This document shows, piece after piece, positions 9,227 to 60,065 of a stretch of DNA of 64,000 bases. Source of the DNA: Candidatus Moraniibacteriota bacterium (GTDB taxonomy: Bacteria > Patescibacteriota > Minisyncoccia > Moranbacterales > UBA1568); assembly GCA_963743885.1 (NCBI GenBank), contig CAVURJ010000002.1, positions 109,020 through 173,019 on the forward strand. Direction: 5' to 3'. Position numbers and translations under genes: made by a program. The notes beneath the pieces are model-generated. The model made no database searches and was not told where the DNA came from. It saw only the letters and a program-made list of their open reading frames with translations. Each line of letters starts with the position of its first letter. The first letter of the stretch is position 1.

Positions 9227-9271
9227 CAAAGGATGGTGATATAGTGGAGATACCCGTATGTTTGTTTGATT

Positions 9272-20863: not shown

Positions 20864-20919
20864 TCGAGAAGCATCTCATGAGGAGAGTGGATAGTTATCC
20901 GCCCTCCTCTTTTTCTTGC

Positions 20920-21042
20920 CAAGTGCAGCGCAGGTAAAATCGGGTCAGTATCCCACGCTCGTTTCGCTGGCTGTGGAGAGCCTTGATTCAGGGCCCTTGC
21001 CTCAGGGTCTTAATACCCGTTATAATAAGGGAGACAAGGTGT
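20920..21042. repeat. Copy D (partial) of intergenic repeat family
   Basis: 'GCAGGTAAAATCGGGTCA...CTTGCC.CAGGG...AATACCCGTTAT' matches the 3' halves of copies B and C. Confidence 0.5.
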
Positions 21043-23833: not shown

Positions 23834-24814
23834 GGATATTACGAGCCAAAAAGACGTATGACATACGGATTTCTCGGCTCATACAGATACTGCATGAACA
23901 TCAACCGGACAATCTAAACGTCAGCGTATTGTGAAGAGATGATAGTCTCTCCGCGAGGAGAGATTTTCATTTCCGCATAAGCGCCTTAACAATTCATGTC
24001 TTTTCTGAGATGGTCATGTTTCGCCTGGCAGCGGAAAGCGAACGGGTTATCTTGGAATAGTCTAAATGATGTAAGGTCAAGCTCATGAGATCTTCGCAGA
24101 TCTCATGAACAAGCAATTCAACCGATAGTGCAGTATGCTGTTGCGCGGACTGATGCGGACTGGAACGGACTGATGCGGAATTTCTGCATAGGTCTGTGTA
24201 AAGTCAGTATTGGTCAGCACATTGAGCGTTCTTCACTGTCAACCGATTGTCCGTGAGTACTTTCATCATAGCGTCGCAAGACGCCGTGATGGAATATTTG
24301 CGGACAATGGAATCAAGAAGGTTACTTAACGCATGGTGTGGATGCCTTGACTGAAGCAAGCGATGAAGGACGTAGGAGGCTGCGATAAGCCTCGGGGAGC
24401 TGTCAAGCAAGCTTTGATCCGGGGATTTCCGAATGGGATAACCCTTCCGATCTTCATGACGGAAAACCGTATCTGAATACATAGGGTACCGAAGCAAACC
24501 CTGGGAATTGAAACATCTTAGTACCAGGAGGAAAAGAAATCAATAGAGATTCCGTAAGTAGTGGCGAGCGAACGCGGAACAGCCTAAACCACCGAGCTTG
24601 CTCGAGTGGGGTTGCAGGGCTTGTGGACTCGATTGATCGGGGTCACTGCAGTGTTGCTAGCAGAACGTTCTGGAAAGAACGACCATAGAGGGTAATAGTC
24701 CCGTATGCGAAAACGATACTGCACTGATGCACAAGTACCTAAGTAGGGCGGGACCGGAGAAATCCCGTTTGAATCTGGGAGCACTAACTTCCAAGGCTAA
24801 ATATTGCTTCAGAT

Positions 24815-24851
<37 letters not shown>

Positions 24852-26453
24852 CATCCCGATAAGGGAGGTGAAATAGATCTGAAACCCTATGCTAACAAAG
24901 AGTCGGAGCCGTCGCATCACACTGCGTGTGATGCTAAATTCAAAATGCAAATTTCAAAAAATGTAAAACTTTGGTTCTTGCTGAGCAAGTCGGACAATTT
25001 ATACTGAATAATCTAAAAATCCGTAAGCGTAGCGAACATAATAATTTTGATTTTTGATTTTTAAATTTTGATTTTAGCGAACATCACGCATAGCGTGATG
25101 CGAGCGGTGACGGCGTGCTTTTTGCAGAACGATCCAACGAGTTAGTTCTACGCGGCTGTCTAAGGGATGACGAATTCCGGAGACATAGTGAAAGCGAGCC
25201 TGAATAGGGCGAATATGGTCGCGTGGACTAGACCCGAAGCCAGGCGAGCTACATATGAGCAGGGTGAAGCGCGGGTAAAACCACGAGGAGGCCCGAACCC
25301 ACTCAGCCGTGCAACACTAGGGGATGACTTGTGAGTAGGGGAGAAATTCCAATCGAGCTTGGCAATAGCTGGTTCTCTCCGAAATAGCTTGAGGGCTAGC
25401 GTCTTGTAAATTATACCCGAGAGGTAGAGCTACTGGATGAGAATTCGCGGTTCGCCGTAGGCTTTTCAACCAAACTCCGAATACTCGAGGTACGTATCCA
25501 AGGCAGTCAGTACTCCGGGGCTAAGCTCGGAGCACAAAAGGGAAACAGCCCAGATCGTCAGTCTAAGGTCCCTAAATCTATGTTAAGTGGGAAAGGAAGT
25601 GAAGTTTCTTAGACACCTAGGAGGTTGGCTTAGAAGCAGCCATCCTTTAAAGAGTGCGTAACAGCTCACTAGTCTAGAGACTTCGCGCCGAAAATGTAAC
25701 GGGGCTAAACATAGTACCGAAGCTACGGATTTTATCGCAAGATAAAGTGGTAGGAGAGCGTTCCGTATGCGCTGAAGCGGAAGGGTGACCAACCGTGGAG
25801 CGTATGGAAGTGAGAATGTTGGAATGAGTAACCGCAATGAGGGTGAGAGCCCCTCACACCGAAAGTCTAAGGTTTCCTGGGCAATGGTGATCATCCCAGG
25901 GTTAGTCGGTCCTAAGGCGAGGCCGAAAGGCGTAGTCGATGGACATCAGGTTAATATTCCTGAACTATTTGTATATTCGATGGAGAGACGCATCTCTGTA
26001 TCTCTTGCCCCTTATTGGATTGGGGTATGCGTATTGAGGACGTTGTACAGGCAAATCCGCACAGACATAGTCCAATGGATGGTTGGACGACGTCTGTAGC
26101 AATACCGGCGAAGAACGAAGTGGAGCAGGGTGCCAGGAAAATCTTCTAAGGTTAGTATACAGATATCCGTACCGCAAACCGACACAGGTGGACTGGGCGA
26201 GTAGCCTAAGGTGAACGGGAGAGCCTTCGTTAAGGAACTCGGCAAAAAAGCTAGGCGTAAGTTCGCAATATGCCTTGCCATCCGCAAGGGTGGCCGCAGC
26301 GAAAGTTTCCCAAGCGACTGTTTACCAAAAACACAGCTCTCTGCAAACCCGTAAGGGGAAGTATAGGGGGTGACACCTGACCAGTGCTGGAACGTTAACG
26401 GGAGCGGTGCACGCCAATCCCCGAAGCGCCAGTGAACGTCGGCGATAACTATA

Positions 26454-27247
26454 GAACGATTGTAGTTATAAAATTTGGCCAAATGCTGGAAACTCCGAAT
26501 GAACCGATATGTACTCGCCTGAAATAAATGGCAGTGAAAATCAGTATCAGTGAGAGTATCGCGGGATACGAGTCGGACAATCAGCAGGAAAGACTCTTAT
26601 GCAAGATGACCAATGGTTGAAACAAGATTCCACCTGAAGTGGGCCACTATTTAGCTGGTTTCGCAGATGGGGAAGGAAGTTTCATAGTCAGTTTACGACA
26701 GCGACCGTGATCATACACTTGGTTGGCAAGTCGTCCTCACTTTCAATGTAGCTCAAAAGGAGAGCTATATCCTTTCGCAATTCAAAAGATATTTGGGTTG
26801 TGGAAGACTACAAGAAAGGAAAGATGGCGTGTTCTACTACGTGTGTGCCAATCCGCAATCGATTCAGGAGAAAGTAATTCCTTTTTTCAAGCGATGTCGA
26901 ATTTCGATCGCAGAGAAAAAAGAAAAATTTCGCTGTTTTCTGTCGTATTGTAGAGAAAGTTTTCAACAAAGAGCATCTGACTGGAAGCCGGGCTGAATGA
27001 AATCATCAGGTTACGTGAAGAGCTCAATGACGGTCGGGGACGCAGGCGAAAGTTTGCGCTCACTGATTATGAAAACTTTCAAAAAGAGAATCCTCAGAGA
27101 CTATACGCCAAACCACGGGCCTTCCGGAAGGAAAGCCATGCTGGATGATATAGTCCGATCTCATGGGTAACTATGAGTTTGATCTCCTGCTATCAATAGA
27201 GATCGAAAAGGTAAAGAAGCGAATTCTTTCTGAACACAGGTGCACGA
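26454..27247 (+). mobile_element. Group I intron inserted in 23S rRNA (E. coli position about 1917 region) carrying a LAGLIDADG homing-endonuclease ORF
   Basis: About 790-nt insertion between the conserved 'AACTATA' and 'TCGTCCTAAGGTAGCGAAATTCC'. Contains the HE ORF. Confidence 0.7.
26639..26996 (+). pseudogene. LAGLIDADG (I-CreI-like) homing endonuclease, interrupted by a 1-nt frameshift at about 26708
   Basis: 'YLAGFADGEGSFIVSLRQRP*' then in the +1 frame 'DHTLGWQVVLTFNVAQKESYILSQFKRYLGCGRLQERKDGVFYYVCANPQSIQEKVIPFFK...', which is collinear with I-CreI (LAGFVDGDGSIIAQIKP...LSLTFQVTQK...). Possible GTG start at 26639. Confidence 0.7.
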
Positions 27248-27650
27248 ATCGTCCTAAGGTAGCGAAATTCCTTGGCAGGTAAGTTCTGACCCGCATCAAA
27301 GGCGTAACGACTTGAAAACTGTCTCAACGAAGAGCTCGGTGAAATTGCAATGACGGTAAAGATGCCGTCGACCTGCAGCAAGACGAAAAGACCCCGTGGA
27401 GCTTTACTACAACTTGGTATTGACTTTGAGTTTTTGTTGCCGAGCATAGGTGGGAGACTTTGAAGCGCCGCTTTGGTCGGGTGGAGTCATCAGTGTAATA
27501 CCACCCTGTATGATTTTAAACGCTAACCCTGGACTGTTATGAGTAACGAAACTTATACGAACCAGCAAATGCAATATGATCAGTTATTCTGATTGTATTC
27601 TGCGCGCTCATAAATTTCTCGAGTTTCATACCAGTCCGGGGACAGTGCCT

Positions 27651-27686
<36 letters not shown>

Positions 27687-27847
27687 GGCAACGGAGGCGT
27701 TTACAAAGGTTGGCTAGGTCCGGATGGAAATCGGACCGATAGTGCAAAAGCATAAGCCAGCTTTACTGAGAGACCCATCAGTCGATCAGTTACGAAAGTA
27801 GAATTTAGTGAACCGACCATCGCTTATAGGAGCGTGGAAGATCATCA

Positions 27848-27880
<33 letters not shown>

Positions 27881-27906
27881 CCTCCCAAGAGTCCACATCG
27901 ACGGAG

Positions 27907-27966
<60 letters not shown>

Positions 27967-28018
27967 TGGCTGTTCGCCAATTAAAGCGGTACGCGAGCTG
28001 GGTTCAAACCGTACAGTA

Positions 28019-28490
28019 GTTATAAAGTGAAAAGTTGAAGGTTTTTAAAGTGTATTCTTGCTTTAGAGACTTGATAACTTGACGGACTTTTGACTCTTGT
28101 ACAGTTTGAACCCCGAGGTGGTTTGCGACATCAAATGGGTTTTTCGTCTTTGAAAAAGTCCTGACATAACAGTCAGGTCCCGACTATCATCATGTTGGGA
28201 ATAGATAACCAATCACATCACGGCGGTACTTTCTTTGTAGAAAGTAACAAGCTGACTTATATCGGTGGAGCCCTTCACGAAACGAAGGGTCATACCGAGG
28301 GAAGAAGATGGTTGAAAGTTTTTAAAGTTCATAAAGTTGAAAGTAAATACGAATTCGTGTTCACTTGATAAACTTTTTAACTTTATACTTGATAAACTAA
28401 ATTCGCCTGTAGAGACTAAACGTCAGCAGTCTTCTGAGCAATCAGGAGATGAAGCTATAGTCCAATGCACTTGGTAACAAGTGGTAACAT
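28019..28490 (+). other. About 470-nt ORF-less insertion in 23S rRNA domain V (E. coli about 2590s), candidate second intron
   Basis: It interrupts the conserved 'GCGAGCTGGGTTCAAAC...GCGTGAGACAGGTTGGTTTCCTATCTGC', is AT-rich, and starts with a local hairpin (GGTTCAAACCGTACAG...CTGTACAGTTTGAACC). Confidence 0.4.
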
Positions 28491-28634
28491 GCGTGAGACA
28501 GGTTGGTTTCCTATCTGCTGTGGGCGTGTGTGGCTTGAGAGAACTCTTCCTTAGTACGAGAGGACCGGGAAGAACGAACCTCTGGTGTATCTGCTGTTCC
28601 GCCAGGAGCATCGCAGAGTGGCTATGTTCGGGCA

Positions 28635-28667
<33 letters not shown>

Positions 28668-28997
28668 GAGCTCAAGATAAGGCCATACCCCTCACTTGAT
28701 TTGCGTAGCATTCATATGCAAGCGATCAGTGAGCTCTTCTCTCGAAATCAGAGAGTGGATAACTGGTGATTCGTGGTAACCATGTAGGTTATAACGCAAA
28801 TCAAGTGAGGGGGAATTTCCTAGAAGATGACTAGGTTGATAGGCTACAGGTGGAAGCGTGGCGACATGTTAAGCCAAGTAGTACTAATAAATTCAAACGA
28901 CTTTCTTCGTTCCAGTACGGTTGGCAGTGAAGAATGCTTGAAAAGGGGAGACAGTATATCATTTCAGAGGACAAAGACAATTTTGGAGAGGAGTGTT

Positions 28998-30275: not shown

Positions 30276-30347
30276 GGATAGGTGTTAGGTTGTAGGGTAT
30301 AGGGTGTAGTCGGAAGGGTAATTATCCCTCCGTTTTCTAACCCCTAA

Positions 30348-30372
30348 CCCCTAACCCCTAACCCCCCCCCTA
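30348..30372. repeat. (TAACCCC)4 telomere-like C-rich repeat, 9 nt upstream of the ftsW/rodA start (G-rich on the minus strand)
   Basis: Direct read: ctaacccctaacccctaacccctaacccccccc. Confidence 0.8.
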
Positions 30373-30378
30373 GTCCTG

Positions 30379-48566: not shown

Positions 48567-48708
48567 TTATTACCAAGCGTAGCGAGTGAAACGAGAGTTT
48601 ACTCTCGTTTCCGAACGGAGCGCAGGCCCGCTTCGACGGAGCTTCAGCGAGGCGAGTAAAATCGGGTTGAATACCCCGCGGCTTGCCCTGGGGTAAATAC
48701 CCGTTATT
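48567..48708. repeat. Copy B of intergenic repeat family, with hairpin AAACGAGAG-ttta-CTCTCGTTT
   Basis: See copies A, C and D. The hairpin arm sequence differs from copy C but pairing is preserved. Confidence 0.6.
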
Positions 48709-48785
48709 TTTCCGGTTTTGAGCCAAAGAGATGTCTGATGCTACACCTTTTTGGCTTGGTTTGTGATGGGGTTGACGGCTGGTTT

Positions 48786-48812
48786 TTGGCACTCTATAAT
48801 TGAGAGTGCTAA
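48786..48812 (+). promoter_or_regulatory. CIRCE element (HrcA operator) TTGGCACTC-N9-GAGTGCTAA upstream of groEL
   Basis: Matches the CIRCE consensus TTAGCACTC-N9-GAGTGCTAA with one mismatch. Confidence 0.7.
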
Positions 48813-48895
48813 TACTTTTAACTAACAACAAACGACTCACGACTGGCAACCAGAGAAAAGGATCTCTGTTGTTCGTTGTCAGTCGTACGTCGTAA

Positions 48896-50548
<1,653 letters not shown>

Positions 50549-52513: not shown

Positions 52514-52536
52514 TAGGGTATAGGTGATGGGGTGTA

Positions 52537-52570
52537 GGGTATAGTTAAAAAAAATCATGCCGGTTGGCAT
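52537..52570. terminator. Bidirectional terminator (A8-ATCATGCC-ggtt-GGCATGAT-T6) between pilB and rel, flanked by GGGTATAGG/CCTATACCC inverted elements
   Basis: Direct read. Confidence 0.7.
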
Positions 52571-52617
52571 GATTTTTTCCGTATCTCCTGATTTTTCGTC
52601 TTTCTATACCCTATCTA

Positions 52618-54217
52618 CTAAACCCTATACCCTGTCCTATGACTTGAATTCATCATGCCGGAGTTCGCGGCGGATATGGGATCGGGCGCCGGAAGTCCTG
52701 ACGAATCCGAGCCAGTCGCGGCTCGGCCGTTTTTTTCTTTGACGGTCAGGATCTCGATGACCTGGGCATTCTGGATACGATAGTCGAGCGGGACCATCTT
52801 ACCGTCCGCTTTGGCGCCGACGGCGCGGTTGCCTATCTCACTGTGGATGGCATAGGCGAAGTCGATCGGCGTGGCGTCTTCCGGCAGGTCGATGATGTCG
52901 CCTTTCGGTGTGAAAGCGAAGATATGGTTCTTGAAGAATTCGATCTTGAGTACCTTCCATGAATTCTTCGTCGTCGCGGCCGATCTCTTTCTGCCATTCT
53001 CGGAGTTGGCTGACCCAGGCGAGATCCTTGGGAAGCGTGTGGGTATGACGGCCTCTTCTGAAGAGTGAGCGCCAGCCGCTCTTGGCATCCTCAGCGTACA
53101 TCCAGTGGGCTGCGATGCCGTATTCGGCCTCGTCATGCATCTTCTGGGTACGAATCTGGATCTCGAGAACGCGGCCGTCCGGTCCGAAGACAGTGGTATG
53201 GAGCGATTGGTAGCCGTTCGGCTTAGGGAGAGAGATGTAATCCTTGATGCGTCCGACCATGGGACGGTATTCACGGTGGATGATGCCGAGTGCTTCGTAG
53301 CAGTCGGCGATCTCTGGAACGATGATACGAATGGCGATCAGATCGTAGATGCGCGTGATATCCATGTCGTGCGTTCGAAGCTTCTGGTAGAGGCGGTAGA
53401 GGCCTTTGGTGCGTCCGGAAATCCCGATGGTCCGCACTTTCTCTTTCTCGAGCGTTTTTTGGAAAAGCCGTACGGCACGCTCCATGTACTCCTTGCCTTC
53501 ATGAAGATAGGTTTCTTCGATCTTTCTGGTTTCTCGATAGCGTTCCGGGTCGAGGTGGAGGAAGCAGAGGTCTTCGAGTTCGCCTTTGATCTCGCCGATG
53601 CCGAGGCGGTTGGCAATCGGAGCGAAGACTTCCATCGTTTCGCGGGCGATACGTTCGCGTTTCTCGGGACGCAGATGCTCGAGGGTGCGCATGTTATGCA
53701 GGCGGTCGGCCAGCTTGATGATGACGACACGGATGTCCTGCGCCATCGCCATGAACATTTTTCGGAGATTTTCGAGAAAGTACTCTTCTTTGGAACCGCG
53801 GAGTTTGATTTTTCCGAGCTTGGTGATGCCGTCGACGAGGTAGGCAGTTTCCGGGCCGAAGCGCTTCTCGATGTCTTGGAGGGTCACTTCGGTGTCTTCC
53901 GGGACGTCATGGAGCAGCCCGGCGGCGATAGTGTGCTCGTCCATGCCGATCTCGGCGAGGATTTCGGCGACATGGAGCGAGTGGGTAATGTAGTCTTCGC
54001 CGGATTTCCGTTTCTGCCCATGATGGGCTTCTTCAGCGAAGCGGTAGGCCTCCGCGAGGAACTTCTGGTCGTCGCTCGTGAGGGGGTGGACGGCCTTTTT
54101 GAGGATATCTTCGATGGTCGGTGCCGGCATGAGTGGTGTTTCCATAGTGATAGTATAAGCGTTGTCATGGAACATGACAACGCTTGGAATCGCGTCGCTC
54201 GAAAAGAACGAAAACAA
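52618..54217 (-). pseudogene. rel: Bifunctional (p)ppGpp synthetase/hydrolase Rel/SpoT, split by a 1-nt frameshift (HD plus synthetase domains in ORF 52838-54217; TGS domain in ORF 52618-53274)
   Basis: HD motif 'HDVPEDT'. Synthetase 'RTKGLYRLYQKLRTHDMDITRIYDLIAIRIIV'. TGS 'IFAFTPKGDIIDLPEDATPIDFAYAIHSEIGNRAVGAKADGKMVPLDYRIQNAQVIEIL' in a different frame. The junction is near 52945-52975. This could be a sequencing error or a genuine pseudogene. Confidence 0.7.
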
Positions 54218-54336: not shown

Positions 54337-55632
54337 ATGCAAAGCATTTCCTCAAAAAATGGATCTGTCCTCGTTTTCTCTCTCATCATTCTTTCTTTCA
54401 TGCTCGTCTCAGCCCTTTCTATCGCGGCTGTTTCCGTATCGGAGCGCAAATCGGCCTCGACGACCGAGCGTTCCAGCCGCTCCTTCCAAGTCGCTGATAC
54501 CGGTGTCGAGAAGGCGCTTCAGAAGATCTACAAGGGCAGCTTCGCTGACCTGAACGCTCTTGCTGGGAGTCTCGGGGGGTCTTGTGCTGGAGCTGTCATT
54601 TCTGGTTCGACCGCATCCGGTTCCTACGAAGTCACTCTTTTTGATAATGATGGCAATGCTATCGCCTGTAACGATGCTTCTTGGCGGGGAAACACTGTCA
54701 AGCTCCGATCCCAAGGCTTCTCCGGCAGCACGACCCGGGCCGTAGAGGTGGCAGTATCGGCATGTGGAAATACGAGCTATCCGGCTGGTCTTGCCCCGAC
54801 GGGTATCGCGTTTGATTCTGTTACCAATTCCATATGGGTGGCGAATAGCTTCAGTGATACCGTCAGCAAGGGTAATGTACATACTGGTTTGAGAGTTGAT
54901 TATCCGGTAGGGTCAAGGCCGAATGGTATCGCATTTGACTCTGTCACGAATTCTATGTGGGTGGTAAATCGTAATTCCGGCACTGTCAGTAAAGTCAATG
55001 TGAATACGGGCGCGAGGACGGATTATATAGTTGGGCCGCCCCTCGTTATTTCCGGGGAGATCACATTCGATCCGGTTACGGAATCTGTATGGGTGACGTT
55101 TGGGTCTGGTAGTGTTGAAAAAATCGATATTCATACTGGGATGATAACTGATGTTTATCCAACCGGTTCTGGATCAATGGGTGTCGCATTCGATCCGGTT
55201 ACGGAATCTGTATGGGTAGTAAATAGAAATGACGACACTGTCAGCAAGGTCGATATCCACACCGGCTCGAGAGTCGATTATCCAGTGGGTGACAACCCGC
55301 TAGGAGCTGCGTTTGATCCTGATACTGGTTCCGTGTGGGTTGCAAACGAGAACTCTGATACCCTTAGCAAGGTCGATATCCACACCGGCTCGAGAGTCGA
55401 TTATCCAGTGGGGGACGGCCCGAATAGGGATGTGTTTGATCCGATCACCCATTCTGTGTGGGTTTCAAATAGGAATGATGATACTGTCAGCAGGGTTAAT
55501 ATCGCTACTGGTTCGAGAGCTGATTATGCCGTAGGAGATAATCCGAGAGCGAATGCTTTTGATTCCGCAACTAATTCTATTTGGGTGTCAAATTATGGTT
55601 CTAACACCATCAGTAGGATCTGTGTAAAATGA
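54337..55632 (+). CDS. Secreted/anchored beta-propeller protein with about 9 YVTN-type 40-residue repeats
   Basis: Hydrophobic N-terminus. Repeats of '(V/I)(D/N)..TG.R.DYPVG..P...AFD..T.S.WV.N...DTVS(K/R)V'. Confidence 0.55.
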   Translation: MQSISSKNGSVLVFSLIILSFMLVSALSIAAVSVSERKSASTTERSSRSFQVADTGVEKALQKIYKGSFADLNALAGSLGGSCAGAVISGSTASGSYEVTLFDNDGNAIACNDASWRGNTVKLRSQGFSGSTTRAVEVAVSACGNTSYPAGLAPTGIAFDSVTNSIWVANSFSDTVSKGNVHTGLRVDYPVGSRPNGIAFDSVTNSMWVVNRNSGTVSKVNVNTGARTDYIVGPPLVISGEITFDPVTESVWVTFGSGSVEKIDIHTGMITDVYPTGSGSMGVAFDPVTESVWVVNRNDDTVSKVDIHTGSRVDYPVGDNPLGAAFDPDTGSVWVANENSDTLSKVDIHTGSRVDYPVGDGPNRDVFDPITHSVWVSNRNDDTVSRVNIATGSRADYAVGDNPRANAFDSATNSIWVSNYGSNTISRICVK

Positions 55633-55690: not shown

Positions 55691-55787
55691 ATATTTCACT
55701 AAAGCTTCGGAGTGGTCGCAGGACAGAGGCTATATCTTCATCTTATCCAGTCTGTGATTTTGGCATTCTTTCTTTGAACAGCGGTCA

Positions 55788-55854
55788 GGTATGGTCTTCG
55801 GTCACAGATAATCCGTCCGCTGTCGCGTCCGGATTTCCGCGACCCCGACTCGCG
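55788..55854. repeat. Direct repeat unit 1 (about 65 nt; second unit at 55955-56019)
   Basis: GGT.TGGT(C/T)TTCGGTCACAGATAA(T/C)CCGTCCGC.G.CGCG.CCGGATTTCCGCGACCCCGACTCGCG occurs twice, about 100 nt apart. Confidence 0.65.
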
Positions 55855-55954
55855 CCTGCCTGCCGGTAGGCAAGAGTTTGCGTGAGTAAAGTGTCTACTT
55901 CTTTATTTTATCTGGTCTGTGGTTCGGGCACTCCTTTTTGCTGCAGCGTTCTGG

Positions 55955-56019
55955 GATGGTTTTCGGTCACAGATAACCCGTCCGCCGCCGCGGTCGGATT
56001 TCCGCGACCCCGACTCGCG
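55955..56019. repeat. Direct repeat unit 2
   Basis: About 88% identical to unit 1. Confidence 0.65.
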
Positions 56020-58341: not shown

Positions 58342-58453
58342 TTATTACCAAACGAAGTGAGTGAAACGAAAGTGTACTTTCGTTTTCGAGCGAGTGCAGG
58401 TAAAATCGGGTCAAATGCCCCGCGGCTTGCCCTGGGGTGAATACCCGTTATTG
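58342..58453. repeat. Copy C of intergenic repeat family, with hairpin AAACGAAAGT-gt-ACTTTCGTTT
   Basis: See copy B. Compensatory substitutions maintain the stem. Confidence 0.6.
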
Positions 58454-59785
58454 TTTAATGTAATTCATGCCACCTACGTTTTTTACGAGCCCCTTTATTT
58501 CAAGCATCGAGAGTATCGAACTCACGGCTGCAGTTTCCAGTGTAGCTGCCTGGATTATCTTGTCAACGTGGATCGGTTCGTGCGAGAGGCAGCGGAGCAC
58601 TCTTTGTTCTTCCGGAGAGAGGCCGGCGGAGGCTCCTGTAATCGCTGTATCATCAGATTGTGTCGCTGGTATGAGAGCGGGGAATTCTTCCAGAATATCA
58701 CTGACGGATGTCACGATCTTTGCGCCTTCCCGGATGAGCCGGTTGGTGCCGGTCGAGACGGGGGAGAAGATGGATCCTGGTATGGCAAATACCTCCCGAT
58801 TATAATCGAGAGCGAGTCGGGCCGTGATGAGGCTGCCGCTCTCTTCGGCGGCTTCGATGACGACCACGCCGAGGCTCATGCCGGCGATGATGCGGTTGCG
58901 CATCGGGAAGGTGTAGGTATTCGCCGGAGTACCGGGAGGGTATTCGGAGACGAGTGCGCCATGTCCGGCGATCCTTTTGGCAAGCGCGACATTGTTCCTC
59001 GGGTAGAGTGAGGCGTCATCGAGGCCGTTGCCCATGACGGCGATGGTCTCCATGCCGGCTTCAAGCGCGGCTTCGTGTGCCAGGGCGTCGATGCCGTAGG
59101 CGAGGCCAGAGACGACGACGCAGCCGGAGCGGGCGAGATCCTCACCGAGCCGGTAGGCGGCCCGTTCCCCATAGTTCGTGTATTTGCGCGAGCCAACGAT
59201 AGCGATGAGTGGCCTCGGTCGGGACCAATCGTAAGTGCCGCGGGCATAGAGTATATAAGGACTATCCAGAGCCTCTCGGAGTAGCTCTGGGTACGATGGA
59301 TCCGATTTCGAGAGCAGGATTATGCTGTGCGTTTGGAAGCGCTTCCATTCCTGATCAGGATTGATAGAGCACCTTCCTTTGAGGAGGAGGTCTTTAGTCT
59401 TCTGGGAGAGGTCGGCCGAGAAAAGGATGTCGTTCTCCGGGGCGTTCCAGACTGTTTCGCCGCTGCCGAATATCCCGACCAGAGTTTCCAAGCGGTCATT
59501 TCCGGGCTTGAGGATCAGGTTGAGAGCGTGAAGATATTTCCTGTCCATGAGGGTATCTTTTTCTTCTACTATAGATGAGACGAGGATAAAAAGCACGTCA
59601 CAGTAGACAAAGATGTTGTTTTTCGTTATGATAGGTATTGTTTTTAAAGAAGTCGTTTCCGCCAGAGGCGGACGAGTGTAGATTTGGGCCGTTAGCCCCT
59701 CACTTGGAATCAGTAAAAACGCAGATGTACTACGTCTACGTGCTGAAAAGCAAAAAGGATGCCAGTCTGTATATTGGCTACACAA
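58448..59785 (-). CDS. dprA: DNA processing protein DprA (Smf)
   Basis: 'IAIVGSRKYTNYGERAAYRLGEDLARSGCVVVSGLAYGIDALAHEAAL...AVMGNGLD' Rossmann-like DprA core plus a C-terminal wHTH. It is long for DprA, so the true start is probably internal. Confidence 0.8.
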   Translation of the reverse strand: MCSQYTDWHPFCFSARRRSTSAFLLIPSEGLTAQIYTRPPLAETTSLKTIPIITKNNIFVYCDVLFILVSSIVEEKDTLMDRKYLHALNLILKPGNDRLETLVGIFGSGETVWNAPENDILFSADLSQKTKDLLLKGRCSINPDQEWKRFQTHSIILLSKSDPSYPELLREALDSPYILYARGTYDWSRPRPLIAIVGSRKYTNYGERAAYRLGEDLARSGCVVVSGLAYGIDALAHEAALEAGMETIAVMGNGLDDASLYPRNNVALAKRIAGHGALVSEYPPGTPANTYTFPMRNRIIAGMSLGVVVIEAAEESGSLITARLALDYNREVFAIPGSIFSPVSTGTNRLIREGAKIVTSVSDILEEFPALIPATQSDDTAITGASAGLSPEEQRVLRCLSHEPIHVDKIIQAATLETAAVSSILSMLEIKGLVKNVGGMNYIKQ

Positions 59786-59988
59786 GCAATCTGAAAAGGC
59801 GTTTTGAAGAGCATAATTCAGAAAAGAATATCTCTACAAAGCACAAAGCTCCTTTTGAGATTGTTTATTACGAAGCGTATCGATCCATGGCTGATGCGAA
59901 GGATCGTGAGAAGAAACTTAAACGTTTTTCTGGCGCTTCGATACATCTCAAAAAGCGGATCAGTGGTAGTCTGACTGATTCCAAGTGA
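59725..59988 (+). CDS. GIY-YIG nuclease-domain small protein (UPF0213/YhbQ-like) immediately upstream of tRNA-Ala
   Basis: 'MYYVYVLKSKKDASLYIGYTSNLKRRFEEHN' is the GIY-YIG motif. The start is the internal ATG (the track start at 59638 has no support). The stop abuts the tRNA. Confidence 0.65.
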   Translation: MYYVYVLKSKKDASLYIGYTSNLKRRFEEHNSEKNISTKHKAPFEIVYYEAYRSMADAKDREKKLKRFSGASIHLKKRISGSLTDSK

Positions 59989-59989
59989 G

Positions 59990-60065
59990 GGGCCGTTAGC
60001 TCATCTGGTAGAGCACCGCATTTGCAATGCGGGGGTGGCAGGTTCGAGTCCTGTACGGTCCACCC
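59990..60065 (+). tRNA. tRNA-Ala (anticodon TGC)
   Basis: Acceptor GGGCCGT/ACGGTCC (one G-U pair), anticodon loop TTTGCAA, T-arm GCAGG-TTCGAGT-CCTGT. Confidence 0.8.

Follow-up and report, generated by a model that had tools for sequence, protein, structure and literature searches.

Classical bacterial MITEs such as Correia, ERIC, RUP and BOX are small, non-coding, multicopy and intergenic, have variable internal modules, show presence/absence polymorphism, and occasionally give promoters, terminators or stop codons to neighbouring genes. With the exception of BOX, they bear inverted repeats at their termini and are linked to DDE transposases. REP/REPIN sequences with their RAYT enzymes are abundant, lineage-restricted intergenic hairpin repeats with no orientation rule relative to genes, whose variants are homogeneous within each genome and whose mobilisation in trans by a single-copy enzyme is presumed; REPs are palindromes of 20-40 nt with a 5' GTAG-type tetranucleotide, usually arranged as inverted doublets. 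The palindrome-associated miniature elements of the IS200/IS605 family lack inverted repeats and have asymmetric ends with nearby hairpins that are similar at the two ends. They lie 3' of a fixed T-rich tetra- or pentanucleotide and end in a fixed tetranucleotide, their tandem copies share a junction, their fold is strand-specific, and an internal A-run pairs with an end. Finally, the Rfam family RF01742 ('lactis-plasmid') occurs as a single copy before mobC in plasmids of Lactobacillales; in it, a long hairpin with GAA/GA-type internal loops (GAA-CGAG, GCGAGUG) is followed by a short second hairpin.

Here we analyse a repeat found in a 64-kb stretch of DNA from Candidatus Moraniibacteriota (the window) that resembles each of these systems and departs from all of them. 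It shares the listed general properties of classical MITEs, but has no terminal inverted repeats. It behaves like REP/REPIN sequences in its lineage restriction, indifferent orientation, homogeneous variants and presumed trans mobilisation, but its unit is asymmetric, measures 84-160 nt, folds into three helices and is bordered by fixed TTAT(T), and its sole doublet (at locus L009) is direct. The likeness to IS200/IS605 miniature elements extends to the absence of inverted repeats, the asymmetric ends with hairpins near both, the fixed sequences before and at the end of the element, the junction shared by tandem copies, the strand-specific fold and the pairing of an internal A-run with an end. 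However, its P2 (GAAACGAAAG.../...CTTTCGTTTC) and P3 (CGGGT/ACCCG) hairpins are unrelated to one another, no Y1 transposase or TnpB was found for it in the sequence searched, and its orientation bias is largely accounted for by target availability; conserved tandem G·A loops in the core are not known from the IS200/IS605 family. The hairpin layout is also like that of RF01742, but the element is a dispersed chromosomal repeat, and we use RF01742 only as an analogy, that of a hairpin processed by a nicking enzyme. We consider it probable that the four segments are copies of a family of small non-coding, non-autonomous mobile elements of Candidatus Moraniibacteriota, which target TTAT(T), lack terminal inverted repeats and probably depend on their fold for mobilisation, possibly in the form of single-stranded DNA.

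Within the window, AATACCCGTTAT occurs four times, versus 0.07 expected by chance, while GAGTGAAACGA has three exact matches and GGTAAAATCGGGT three matches with at most one mismatch. The copies, designated A to D (Table 1), are all intergenic and all on the + strand. Searches of the window with nhmmer profiles found no fifth copy; the sole extra signal was a chance-level stretch resembling the 5' module. The density of the element is about one per 16 kb in the window and reaches three in 8 kb in some genomes. The first-pass annotation had proposed a four-copy intergenic repeat family with a 5' end common to all copies. The family is real and lies where it was placed, and the common 5' end holds for three of the four: copies A, C and D are full copies, whereas copy B lacks the whole 5' module and hairpin (the 5' strands of P1 and of the G·A loops, and P2) and starts directly after the terminator hairpin of the upstream gene. 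Copy A has a different insertion variant as its interior, with GC-rich insertion hairpins and without the P2 hairpin, and scores only 19-20 bits with covariance models. Copy D is the best match to the family consensus.

Table 1. Coordinates of the repeat copies and of other features in the 64-kb window
Feature	Position	Strand	Description
RiPP-type cluster	9266-13155		YcaO cyclodehydratase and nitroreductase-family pair, then a 366-aa ORF
Copy A	13182..13308	+	Both ends present; variant interior
Copy A, left end	13182-13189	+	TTATTATC; 5' module runs to 13209
Copy A, P3 stem	13281-13285 with 13299-13303	+	CGGGT with ACCCG
Copy A, right end	13299-13308	+	ACCCGTTATT
Copy B	~20918..21024	+	5'-truncated
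Copy B, retained sequence	20930-20940	+	GCAGGTAAAAT
Copy B, P3 stem	20941-20945 with 21015-21019	+	
Copy B, promoter-like site	20997-21026		TTGCCT-18-TATAAT; 10/12 matches
Copy B, right end	21015-21023	+	ACCCGTTAT
TPR-protein gene	21048	+	Gene start, 23 nt after the end of copy B
23S rRNA gene	24315-28909		4.6 kb; large insertions, one from ~24920
ORFs inside 23S	25583-25894; 26012-26482	-	
TAGGGT-type repeat, first	30276-30375		Arms 30276-30308 with 30334-30365
TAGGGT-type repeat, second	44828-44859		
Extra DNA relative to L017	45917-48566		~2.8 kb, ending at copy C
Copy C	48567..48708	+	Full length, 142 nt; 56.7 bits (covariance model)
Copy C, borders	48567-48571; 48704-48708	+	TTATT and TTATT
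Copy C, P1	48570-48574; 48652-48662	+	5' strand TTACC; 3' strand inside GCGAGTAAAAT
Copy C, G·A-loop strand	48575-48587	+	
Copy C, P2 hairpin	48588-48611	+	GAAACGAGAG/CTCTCGTTTC
Copy C, insertion	48612-48651	+	40 nt
Copy C, P3 stem	48663-48667 with 48699-48703	+	Encloses derived hairpin CCCCGCGGCTTGCCCTGGGG, 48674-48693
groEL control region	48772-48905		Sigma-70-type promoter TTGACG-17-TATAAT; CIRCE operator 48786-48812
TAGGGT-type repeat, third	52514-52640		Arms 52514-52544 with 52601-52632
Tandem repeats	54806-55554; 55720-56019		123-nt repeats (at least 5 copies, 63-100% identity) and 135-nt pair
Copy D	58342..58452	+	Full length, 111 nt; 93.5 bits (covariance model)
Copy D, borders	58342-58346; 58448-58452	+	TTATT and TTATT
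Copy D, P1	58345-58349 with 58399-58403	+	
Copy D, G·A-loop strands	58350-58362; 58387-58398	+	
Copy D, P2 hairpin	58363-58386	+	GAAACGAAAG/CTTTCGTTTT
Copy D, P3 stem	58407-58411 with 58443-58447	+	Encloses CCCCGCGGCTTGCCCTGGGG, 58418-58437
dprA stop codon in copy D	58448-58450	-	TTA inside the terminal TTATT, read on the opposite strand
GC-rich hairpins	59660-59690		Intergenic, ~20 nt
5'-module-like stretch	59862-59883		Chance-level nhmmer signal
tRNA cluster	59990-62009		
tRNA 5' fragment	60999-61020		GGGTGATTAGCTCAGGTGGTTA, 311 nt upstream of the tRNA gene
tRNA gene, first 22 nt	61310-61331		GGGTGATTAGCTCAGGTGGTTA

To delimit the wider family, GTDB species genomes were scanned with the pattern CAANCGNAGNGAGTGAAACGA, which returned 50 loci, about 37 of them with true copies (L-numbers label loci from other genomes that were compared with the window). 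A covariance model made from 18 short copies identified 45 copies in the window and these 37 loci, the host genomes being surveyed as pieces of 8-20 kb around the copies. The hosts are nearly all Candidatus Moraniibacteriota MAGs. No canonical copy was present in ~1.04 Mb of topA neighbourhoods from relatives with 41-71% TopA identity, and viral contigs gave no match to the core pattern. Weak, possibly diverged relatives in other lineages (E 0.005-0.75) are L066:8600-8684, L066:322-405, L055:3557-3637 and L114:229-309. No Rfam 15 family matched the window copies at gathering thresholds, and none matched copy C at E<=10. Literature searches on CPR repeats and MITEs, and on literal element sequences, found nothing relevant; the family is apparently undescribed.

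The copies fall into a short form of 83-85 nt (~84 nt) and long forms of 103-179 nt. The short form (consensus TTATTACCAAACGAAGTGAGTGAAACGAAAGTTTACTTTCGTTTCCGAGCGAGTGCCGGTAAAATCGGGTGAATACCYGTTATT) has the layout TTATT-ACCAAACGAAGYGAGU-[P2 hairpin]-CCGAGCGAGUGCY-GGUAAAAU-[P3 hairpin]-TTAT(T). The long forms have two direct repeats of GGTGAATACC in the P3 loop, with one to three extra hairpins between them. Two of the hairpins combine invariant G(CTTG)C loops with covarying stems (CCAGGG/CCCTGG, CCAGAG/CTCTGG, GCGGGG/CCCCGC), and the middle one is often P2-like, such a second P2-like hairpin being limited to some long forms. Other variants have small GC-rich hairpins between P2 and the 3' strand of P1. 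The P2 loop is found in both orientations (ACTTGT/ACAAGT and GTTTAC/GTAAAC), a sequence pattern that points to palindrome dynamics at the DNA level. No ORF lies within the element over its range of 84-180 nt, and no case was seen in which an ORF splits the 5' and 3' modules.

Several MAGs that carry the repeat are deposited as 'uncultured Bdellovibrionales' (L005, L008, L012, L015, L016, L021, L025, L032, L041, L042, L044 and L048). Because the groEL and pilB-like genes of L015 are 73-85% identical to those of the window, this label is probably wrong. The window itself has a 23S rRNA gene of 4.6 kb, compared with a 2.9-kb model, with ORFs inside it that have no Pfam match; 23S and 5S are its only rRNA genes, with no 16S gene upstream. 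The long 23S gene fits a CPR organism.

The predicted consensus fold is a rod-like hairpin in which P1 (UUACC with GGUAA) is followed by two tandem G·A internal loops and P2, a 10-bp hairpin; the P3 hairpin (CGGGU with ACCCG) comes after it. The internal region opposes 5'-CGAAG to 5'-CGAG and 5'-UGAG to 5'-CGAG, such that two tandem G·A pairs are possible 2 bp apart, in an ambiguous register. The 5' end of the element pairs with the internal GGTAA rather than with its 3' end. An integron attC site, with core sites RYYYAAC and GTTRRRY that pair, was rejected: the 3' end reads GTTATTN and does not have the RRR of GTTRRRY, and there is no pairing between the two ends. Readings as parS, dif, attC, K-turn and uptake-signal sequences were also dropped on half-site order, core sequences or bulge geometry.

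The stems are maintained by compensatory change. Across 44 copies, 94.8% of cells form pairs, compared with 91.2% in shuffled and 37-51% in slid controls, and pairs changed on both sides number 14, versus 4.8 ± 1.5 in shuffles (none of 500 reaches 14) and 3-6 in slid controls. The alignment was fitted to the model and its columns 8-28 were fixed by the search pattern; the informative changes lie outside these columns. Double changes occur in P1 (TTATC/GATAA in L012; TTGTC/GACA in L047:7830) and in P2 (GAGGG/CTCTC; GAACGC/GCGTTC), P3 alternates between CGGG/CCCG and CAGG/CCTG (12 A-T versus 20 G-C), and the G(CTTG)C hairpins covary in their stems while their loops are fixed. These data support a selected secondary structure rather than neutral decay. 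The first-pass annotation had drawn this conclusion from compensatory differences between the hairpins of two window copies, which it named B and C; the hairpins in question belong to C and D and differ by one G-C to A-T replacement, which is thin evidence alone, and it is only the wider family that carries the claim. It had further taken the conserved structure to be RNA. Selection on the structure stands, but its RNA nature is not established, since the same pairs would form in single-stranded DNA and the element has no conserved promoter.

A family of structured non-coding RNAs, whether independent sRNAs or cis-acting RNA elements (stabilisers, terminators or protein-binding sites), with copies arising by duplication, would account for strong covariation in all helices and for G(CUUG)C tetraloops that stay invariant on covarying stems. 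It would also account for the two tandem loops of sheared-G·A type (in CGAG/UGAG contexts) and a consensus U·G pair, all of which exist on the top strand only, and for a top-strand fold with z ~ -3. The possible diverged relatives in L066, L055 and L114 likewise seem, from their sequences, to keep this layout with changed stems. Yet both strands fold better than shuffles, the bottom strands almost as well as the top, and no structural feature separates RNA from single-stranded DNA, as base pairs, G·T wobbles and tandem G·A pairs could form in both. An excess of G·U over A·C pairs (64 versus 29) was dropped as an RNA signal: without one consensus U·G column it becomes 41 versus 28, which is not significant, and it could reflect mutation bias.

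The genomic context of the copies also argues against an RNA family. The window copies have no common position or orientation relative to genes. Copy A lies between convergent genes, downstream of the YcaO/nitroreductase cluster; copy B between two + strand genes, after the terminator of a sodium:solute symporter gene and before the TPR-protein gene; copy C between a pilin-like gene and the groEL promoter, which the CIRCE operator overlaps; and copy D between dprA and topA, antisense to both. The copies of the family are sense to both nearest ORFs in 14 cases, antisense to both in 15, between convergent ORFs in 5 and between divergent ORFs in 3. Random orientation of this kind, together with the position of copy C in the spacer upstream of the groEL promoter, led us to reject the suggestion that the repeat is a cis-regulatory RNA. 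Conservation begins abruptly at TTTATT, with no conserved promoter before the element. An intrinsic terminator was rejected as well: terminator scans called none inside copies A, C and D, and P3 has only 5 bp followed by TTATT. With an A-run and a T-run on its flanks, P3 is like a weak two-way terminator. In addition, the dprA-topA site occupied by copy D is empty in relatives of 81-90% DprA identity, and no Rfam family matches. Taken together, these observations make a non-coding RNA family an unlikely explanation.

Some copies nevertheless appear to have been reused by host genes. The promoter-like site in copy B, the only one in its spacer, is built from a hairpin loop of the element and the terminal GTTAT, and may be a promoter of the TPR-protein gene. 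Its TATAAT box arises from GTTAT and a flanking AAT, as do the boxes in L012 and L013 before rpsJ-like and atpD-like genes, judged by eye from translated starts. A converging gene can also use the terminal TTA as its stop codon, as dprA does in copy D; in seven copies such a stop is located within the terminal TTATT or beside it.

The left border of the element is TTATT in 41 of 45 copies, and the right border is TTAT in nearly all of the 45, with T as the next base in ~70%. A simple MITE with terminal inverted repeats had been named as an alternative to a structured element; no such repeats are present in the window copies or in the 18-copy consensus, and the 5' end, TTATTACCAAACG, bears no resemblance to the reverse-complemented 3' end, AATAACGGGTATT. 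A flanking TTAT(T) direct repeat does exist.

Evidence for mobility comes from relatives located through DprA homologues. In L133 (81% DprA identity), the dprA-topA junction reads ...ATTAAACAATAA followed directly by GCAGTCAACAAAAAACGGG..., without the element, whereas the reverse strand of the window reads ...ATTAAACAATAA (CGGGTATT...GGTAATAA) ACAATCAACAAAAAACGGG..., with the element in parentheses. L133 thus has a precise empty site, AAACAATAA joined to GCAGTCAAC, where the window has AAACAATAA, the element, and AATAA-ACAATCAAC; a single TTATT in L133 corresponds to TTATT-element-TTATT in the window. L131 (83% DprA identity) has an 83-nt spacer without the element, and in L136 (90%) dprA and topA overlap (ATGA), also without it. 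The L133 site is the one clean empty site: the gene upstream of copy A is an orphan, which left no second such site there, the region upstream of groEL in L131 lacks the element but has flanks that do not align cleanly, and L133 and L131 differ upstream of dprA by a complex 390-nt indel. Elsewhere, L133 carries copies of its own. Similarly, the window, L017 and L015 have the groEL-pilB region in common at 73-86% amino-acid identity, with the element at different places, and copy C and the L017 copy both lie at synteny or indel boundaries.

Copies have also multiplied within genomes. Copies C and D have in common a derived deletion hairpin, CCCCGCGGCTTGCCCTGGGG, which represents a fusion of the long form's first CTTG hairpin with its last and occurs in no other genome; L010 and L033, from one MAG, have the same unusual long form; and the loop variants within any one genome are alike. 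The tandem pair in L009, the only doublet seen, is a direct repeat with a single TTATT common to both units. An empty site in a relative, differing sites in related genomes and a derived deletion common to two copies bear out the suggestion that the repeat could be a MITE, if the term is taken broadly to mean a small mobile element that is non-autonomous. Thus, the family is a lineage-restricted non-coding repeat that has been inserted at TTAT(T) and copied within genomes.

An ordinary MITE derived from a DDE-transposase insertion sequence, moving as double-stranded DNA with a 4-5 bp target-site duplication and bearing hairpins that are incidental, would also produce TTAT(T) on both sides of the element and one copy in the empty site, and it would explain a small, non-coding, multicopy unit with a variable interior. 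A 4- or 5-bp duplication by the double-strand route and insertion beside TTAT of an element that itself ends in TTAT give the same picture at the junction. But in a loose duplication the pentamers on the two sides would change in step from copy to copy, whereas here both stay at TTAT(T), and with no terminal inverted repeats and with stems under selection, we regard movement of this kind as very unlikely.

How might a non-autonomous element of this kind be mobilised? An enzyme acting in trans would copy or move the element by recognising its folded top strand. As one option, an HUH-type nuclease of the 'peel-and-paste' or rolling-circle-like kind would cut after TTAT at both ends and join the element to TTAT at the target. 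The partner in site recognition could be the AAAA inside GGTAAAAT, to which the left TTATT is paired in P1. A single-strand mechanism of the HUH type is our most economical guess, because the element has no inverted repeats, left end, right end and target have one short sequence in common, tandem copies meet at a single junction, and the left TTATT is paired to an internal A-run. Against this guess are the dissimilar end hairpins and the outcome of the enzyme searches. Pfam searches of 40 of the 48 called ORFs of at least 100 aa found no transposase or partner gene in the window, clustering of 312 ORFs around the copies found no recurrent neighbour gene at the 37 family loci, and phmmer with an IS608 TnpA query found no Y1 transposase in the 1.5 Mb examined.

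A more radical reading, which we regard as a long shot, is that the RNA itself is the mobile agent and is copied back into TTAT sites by reverse transcription or RNA-guided integration. The element would then be a bacterial SINE-like or guide-RNA-bearing mini-element, with its tandem G·A loops, fixed CUUG loops and ends held in P1, and it would use an enzyme from these bacteria. The 5'-truncated copy B fits movement through reverse transcription. In a less radical version, given the same low probability, the element would be a self-guided mini-transposon of single-stranded DNA, whose internal AAAA would read TTAT at both ends and at the target.

The repeat could instead be a DNA site that serves the host, recognised as a folded single strand or as a duplex by a protein of the nucleoid or of replication, uptake or transfer; priming sites, or oriT-like sites with a hairpin and a nick, dispersed over the chromosome would be examples. 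The nearest sub-threshold Rfam match, that of a long form to RF01742 (16.1 bits, E 3.6), has a similar layout and has the loop letters GAA-CGAG and GCGAGUG in common, but this match is at chance level (gathering score 70). RF01742 lies directly upstream of mobC, overlapping its start, in 349 Lactococcus and Enterococcus plasmids, 230 of them typed as mobilisable (for example L137 2501-2604, Lactococcus plasmid NC_008504.1). From this arrangement, the 'lactis-plasmid RNA' may be a transfer-origin DNA hairpin rather than an RNA. Most Patescibacteria are without relaxases (PMC12102498), which weakens the reading of the repeat as a chromosomal oriT. A mild leading-strand bias of the element would suit a host site or replication-coupled orientation, as the top strand is on the G-rich (leading) strand in 32 of 45 copies. 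However, TTATT and AATAA occur 386 and 236 times on the G-rich strand, so that target availability alone would give ~62%, and this asymmetry explains most of the bias. It would be odd for an essential site to be missing both from close relatives and from 1 Mb of sequence in related genomes, and we judge a host-serving role to be quite unlikely.

Several other features of the window were recorded. The ~2.8 kb of DNA that ends at copy C is extra between ychF and groEL relative to L017 (1595-1765), which is 86% identical, and holds genes for a CARDB-domain protein and a T4SS-pilin-like protein. Downstream of copy C, no groES lies between the CIRCE operator and groEL, and L017 has the same promoter/CIRCE arrangement without groES. 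A second kind of intergenic repeat occurs at three places and consists of TAGGGT-like runs and their complement (CTAACCC/ACCCTA); its long imperfect inverted arms surround a terminator hairpin, and the C-rich arm ends 9-14 nt before the start of the next gene. GC-rich hairpins of ~20 nt (CCTGCC...GGCAGG, TCCGCC...GGCGGA, GCC-GAAG-GGC) occur both between genes (in the window and at L133 9290-9830) and inside copies of the element (in L019, L027, L035, L042 and window copy A); such tiny palindromic insertions would appear to form a class of their own. The 123-nt and 135-nt repeats probably belong to the coding sequence of a large surface protein whose gene lies downstream of topA. In the tRNA cluster, the first 22 nt of one tRNA gene are duplicated upstream without the remainder, and may be a tRNA fragment from integration or rearrangement. 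The 366-aa ORF that follows the YcaO/nitroreductase pair has no database relative besides itself.

CPR/Patescibacteria, to which the ultra-small Moranbacteria belong, have small, streamlined genomes in which mobile DNA is usually said to be scarce. The family described here is a marker for a subclade of Moranbacteria. It also causes breaks in assemblies, and covariation screens can take it for a regulatory RNA. The element marks synteny breaks and indels between close relatives, and genes next to it gain stop codons and a promoter-like site from it. Because it does not fit the inverted-repeat MITE model, it points to a further mobilising activity in these bacteria.
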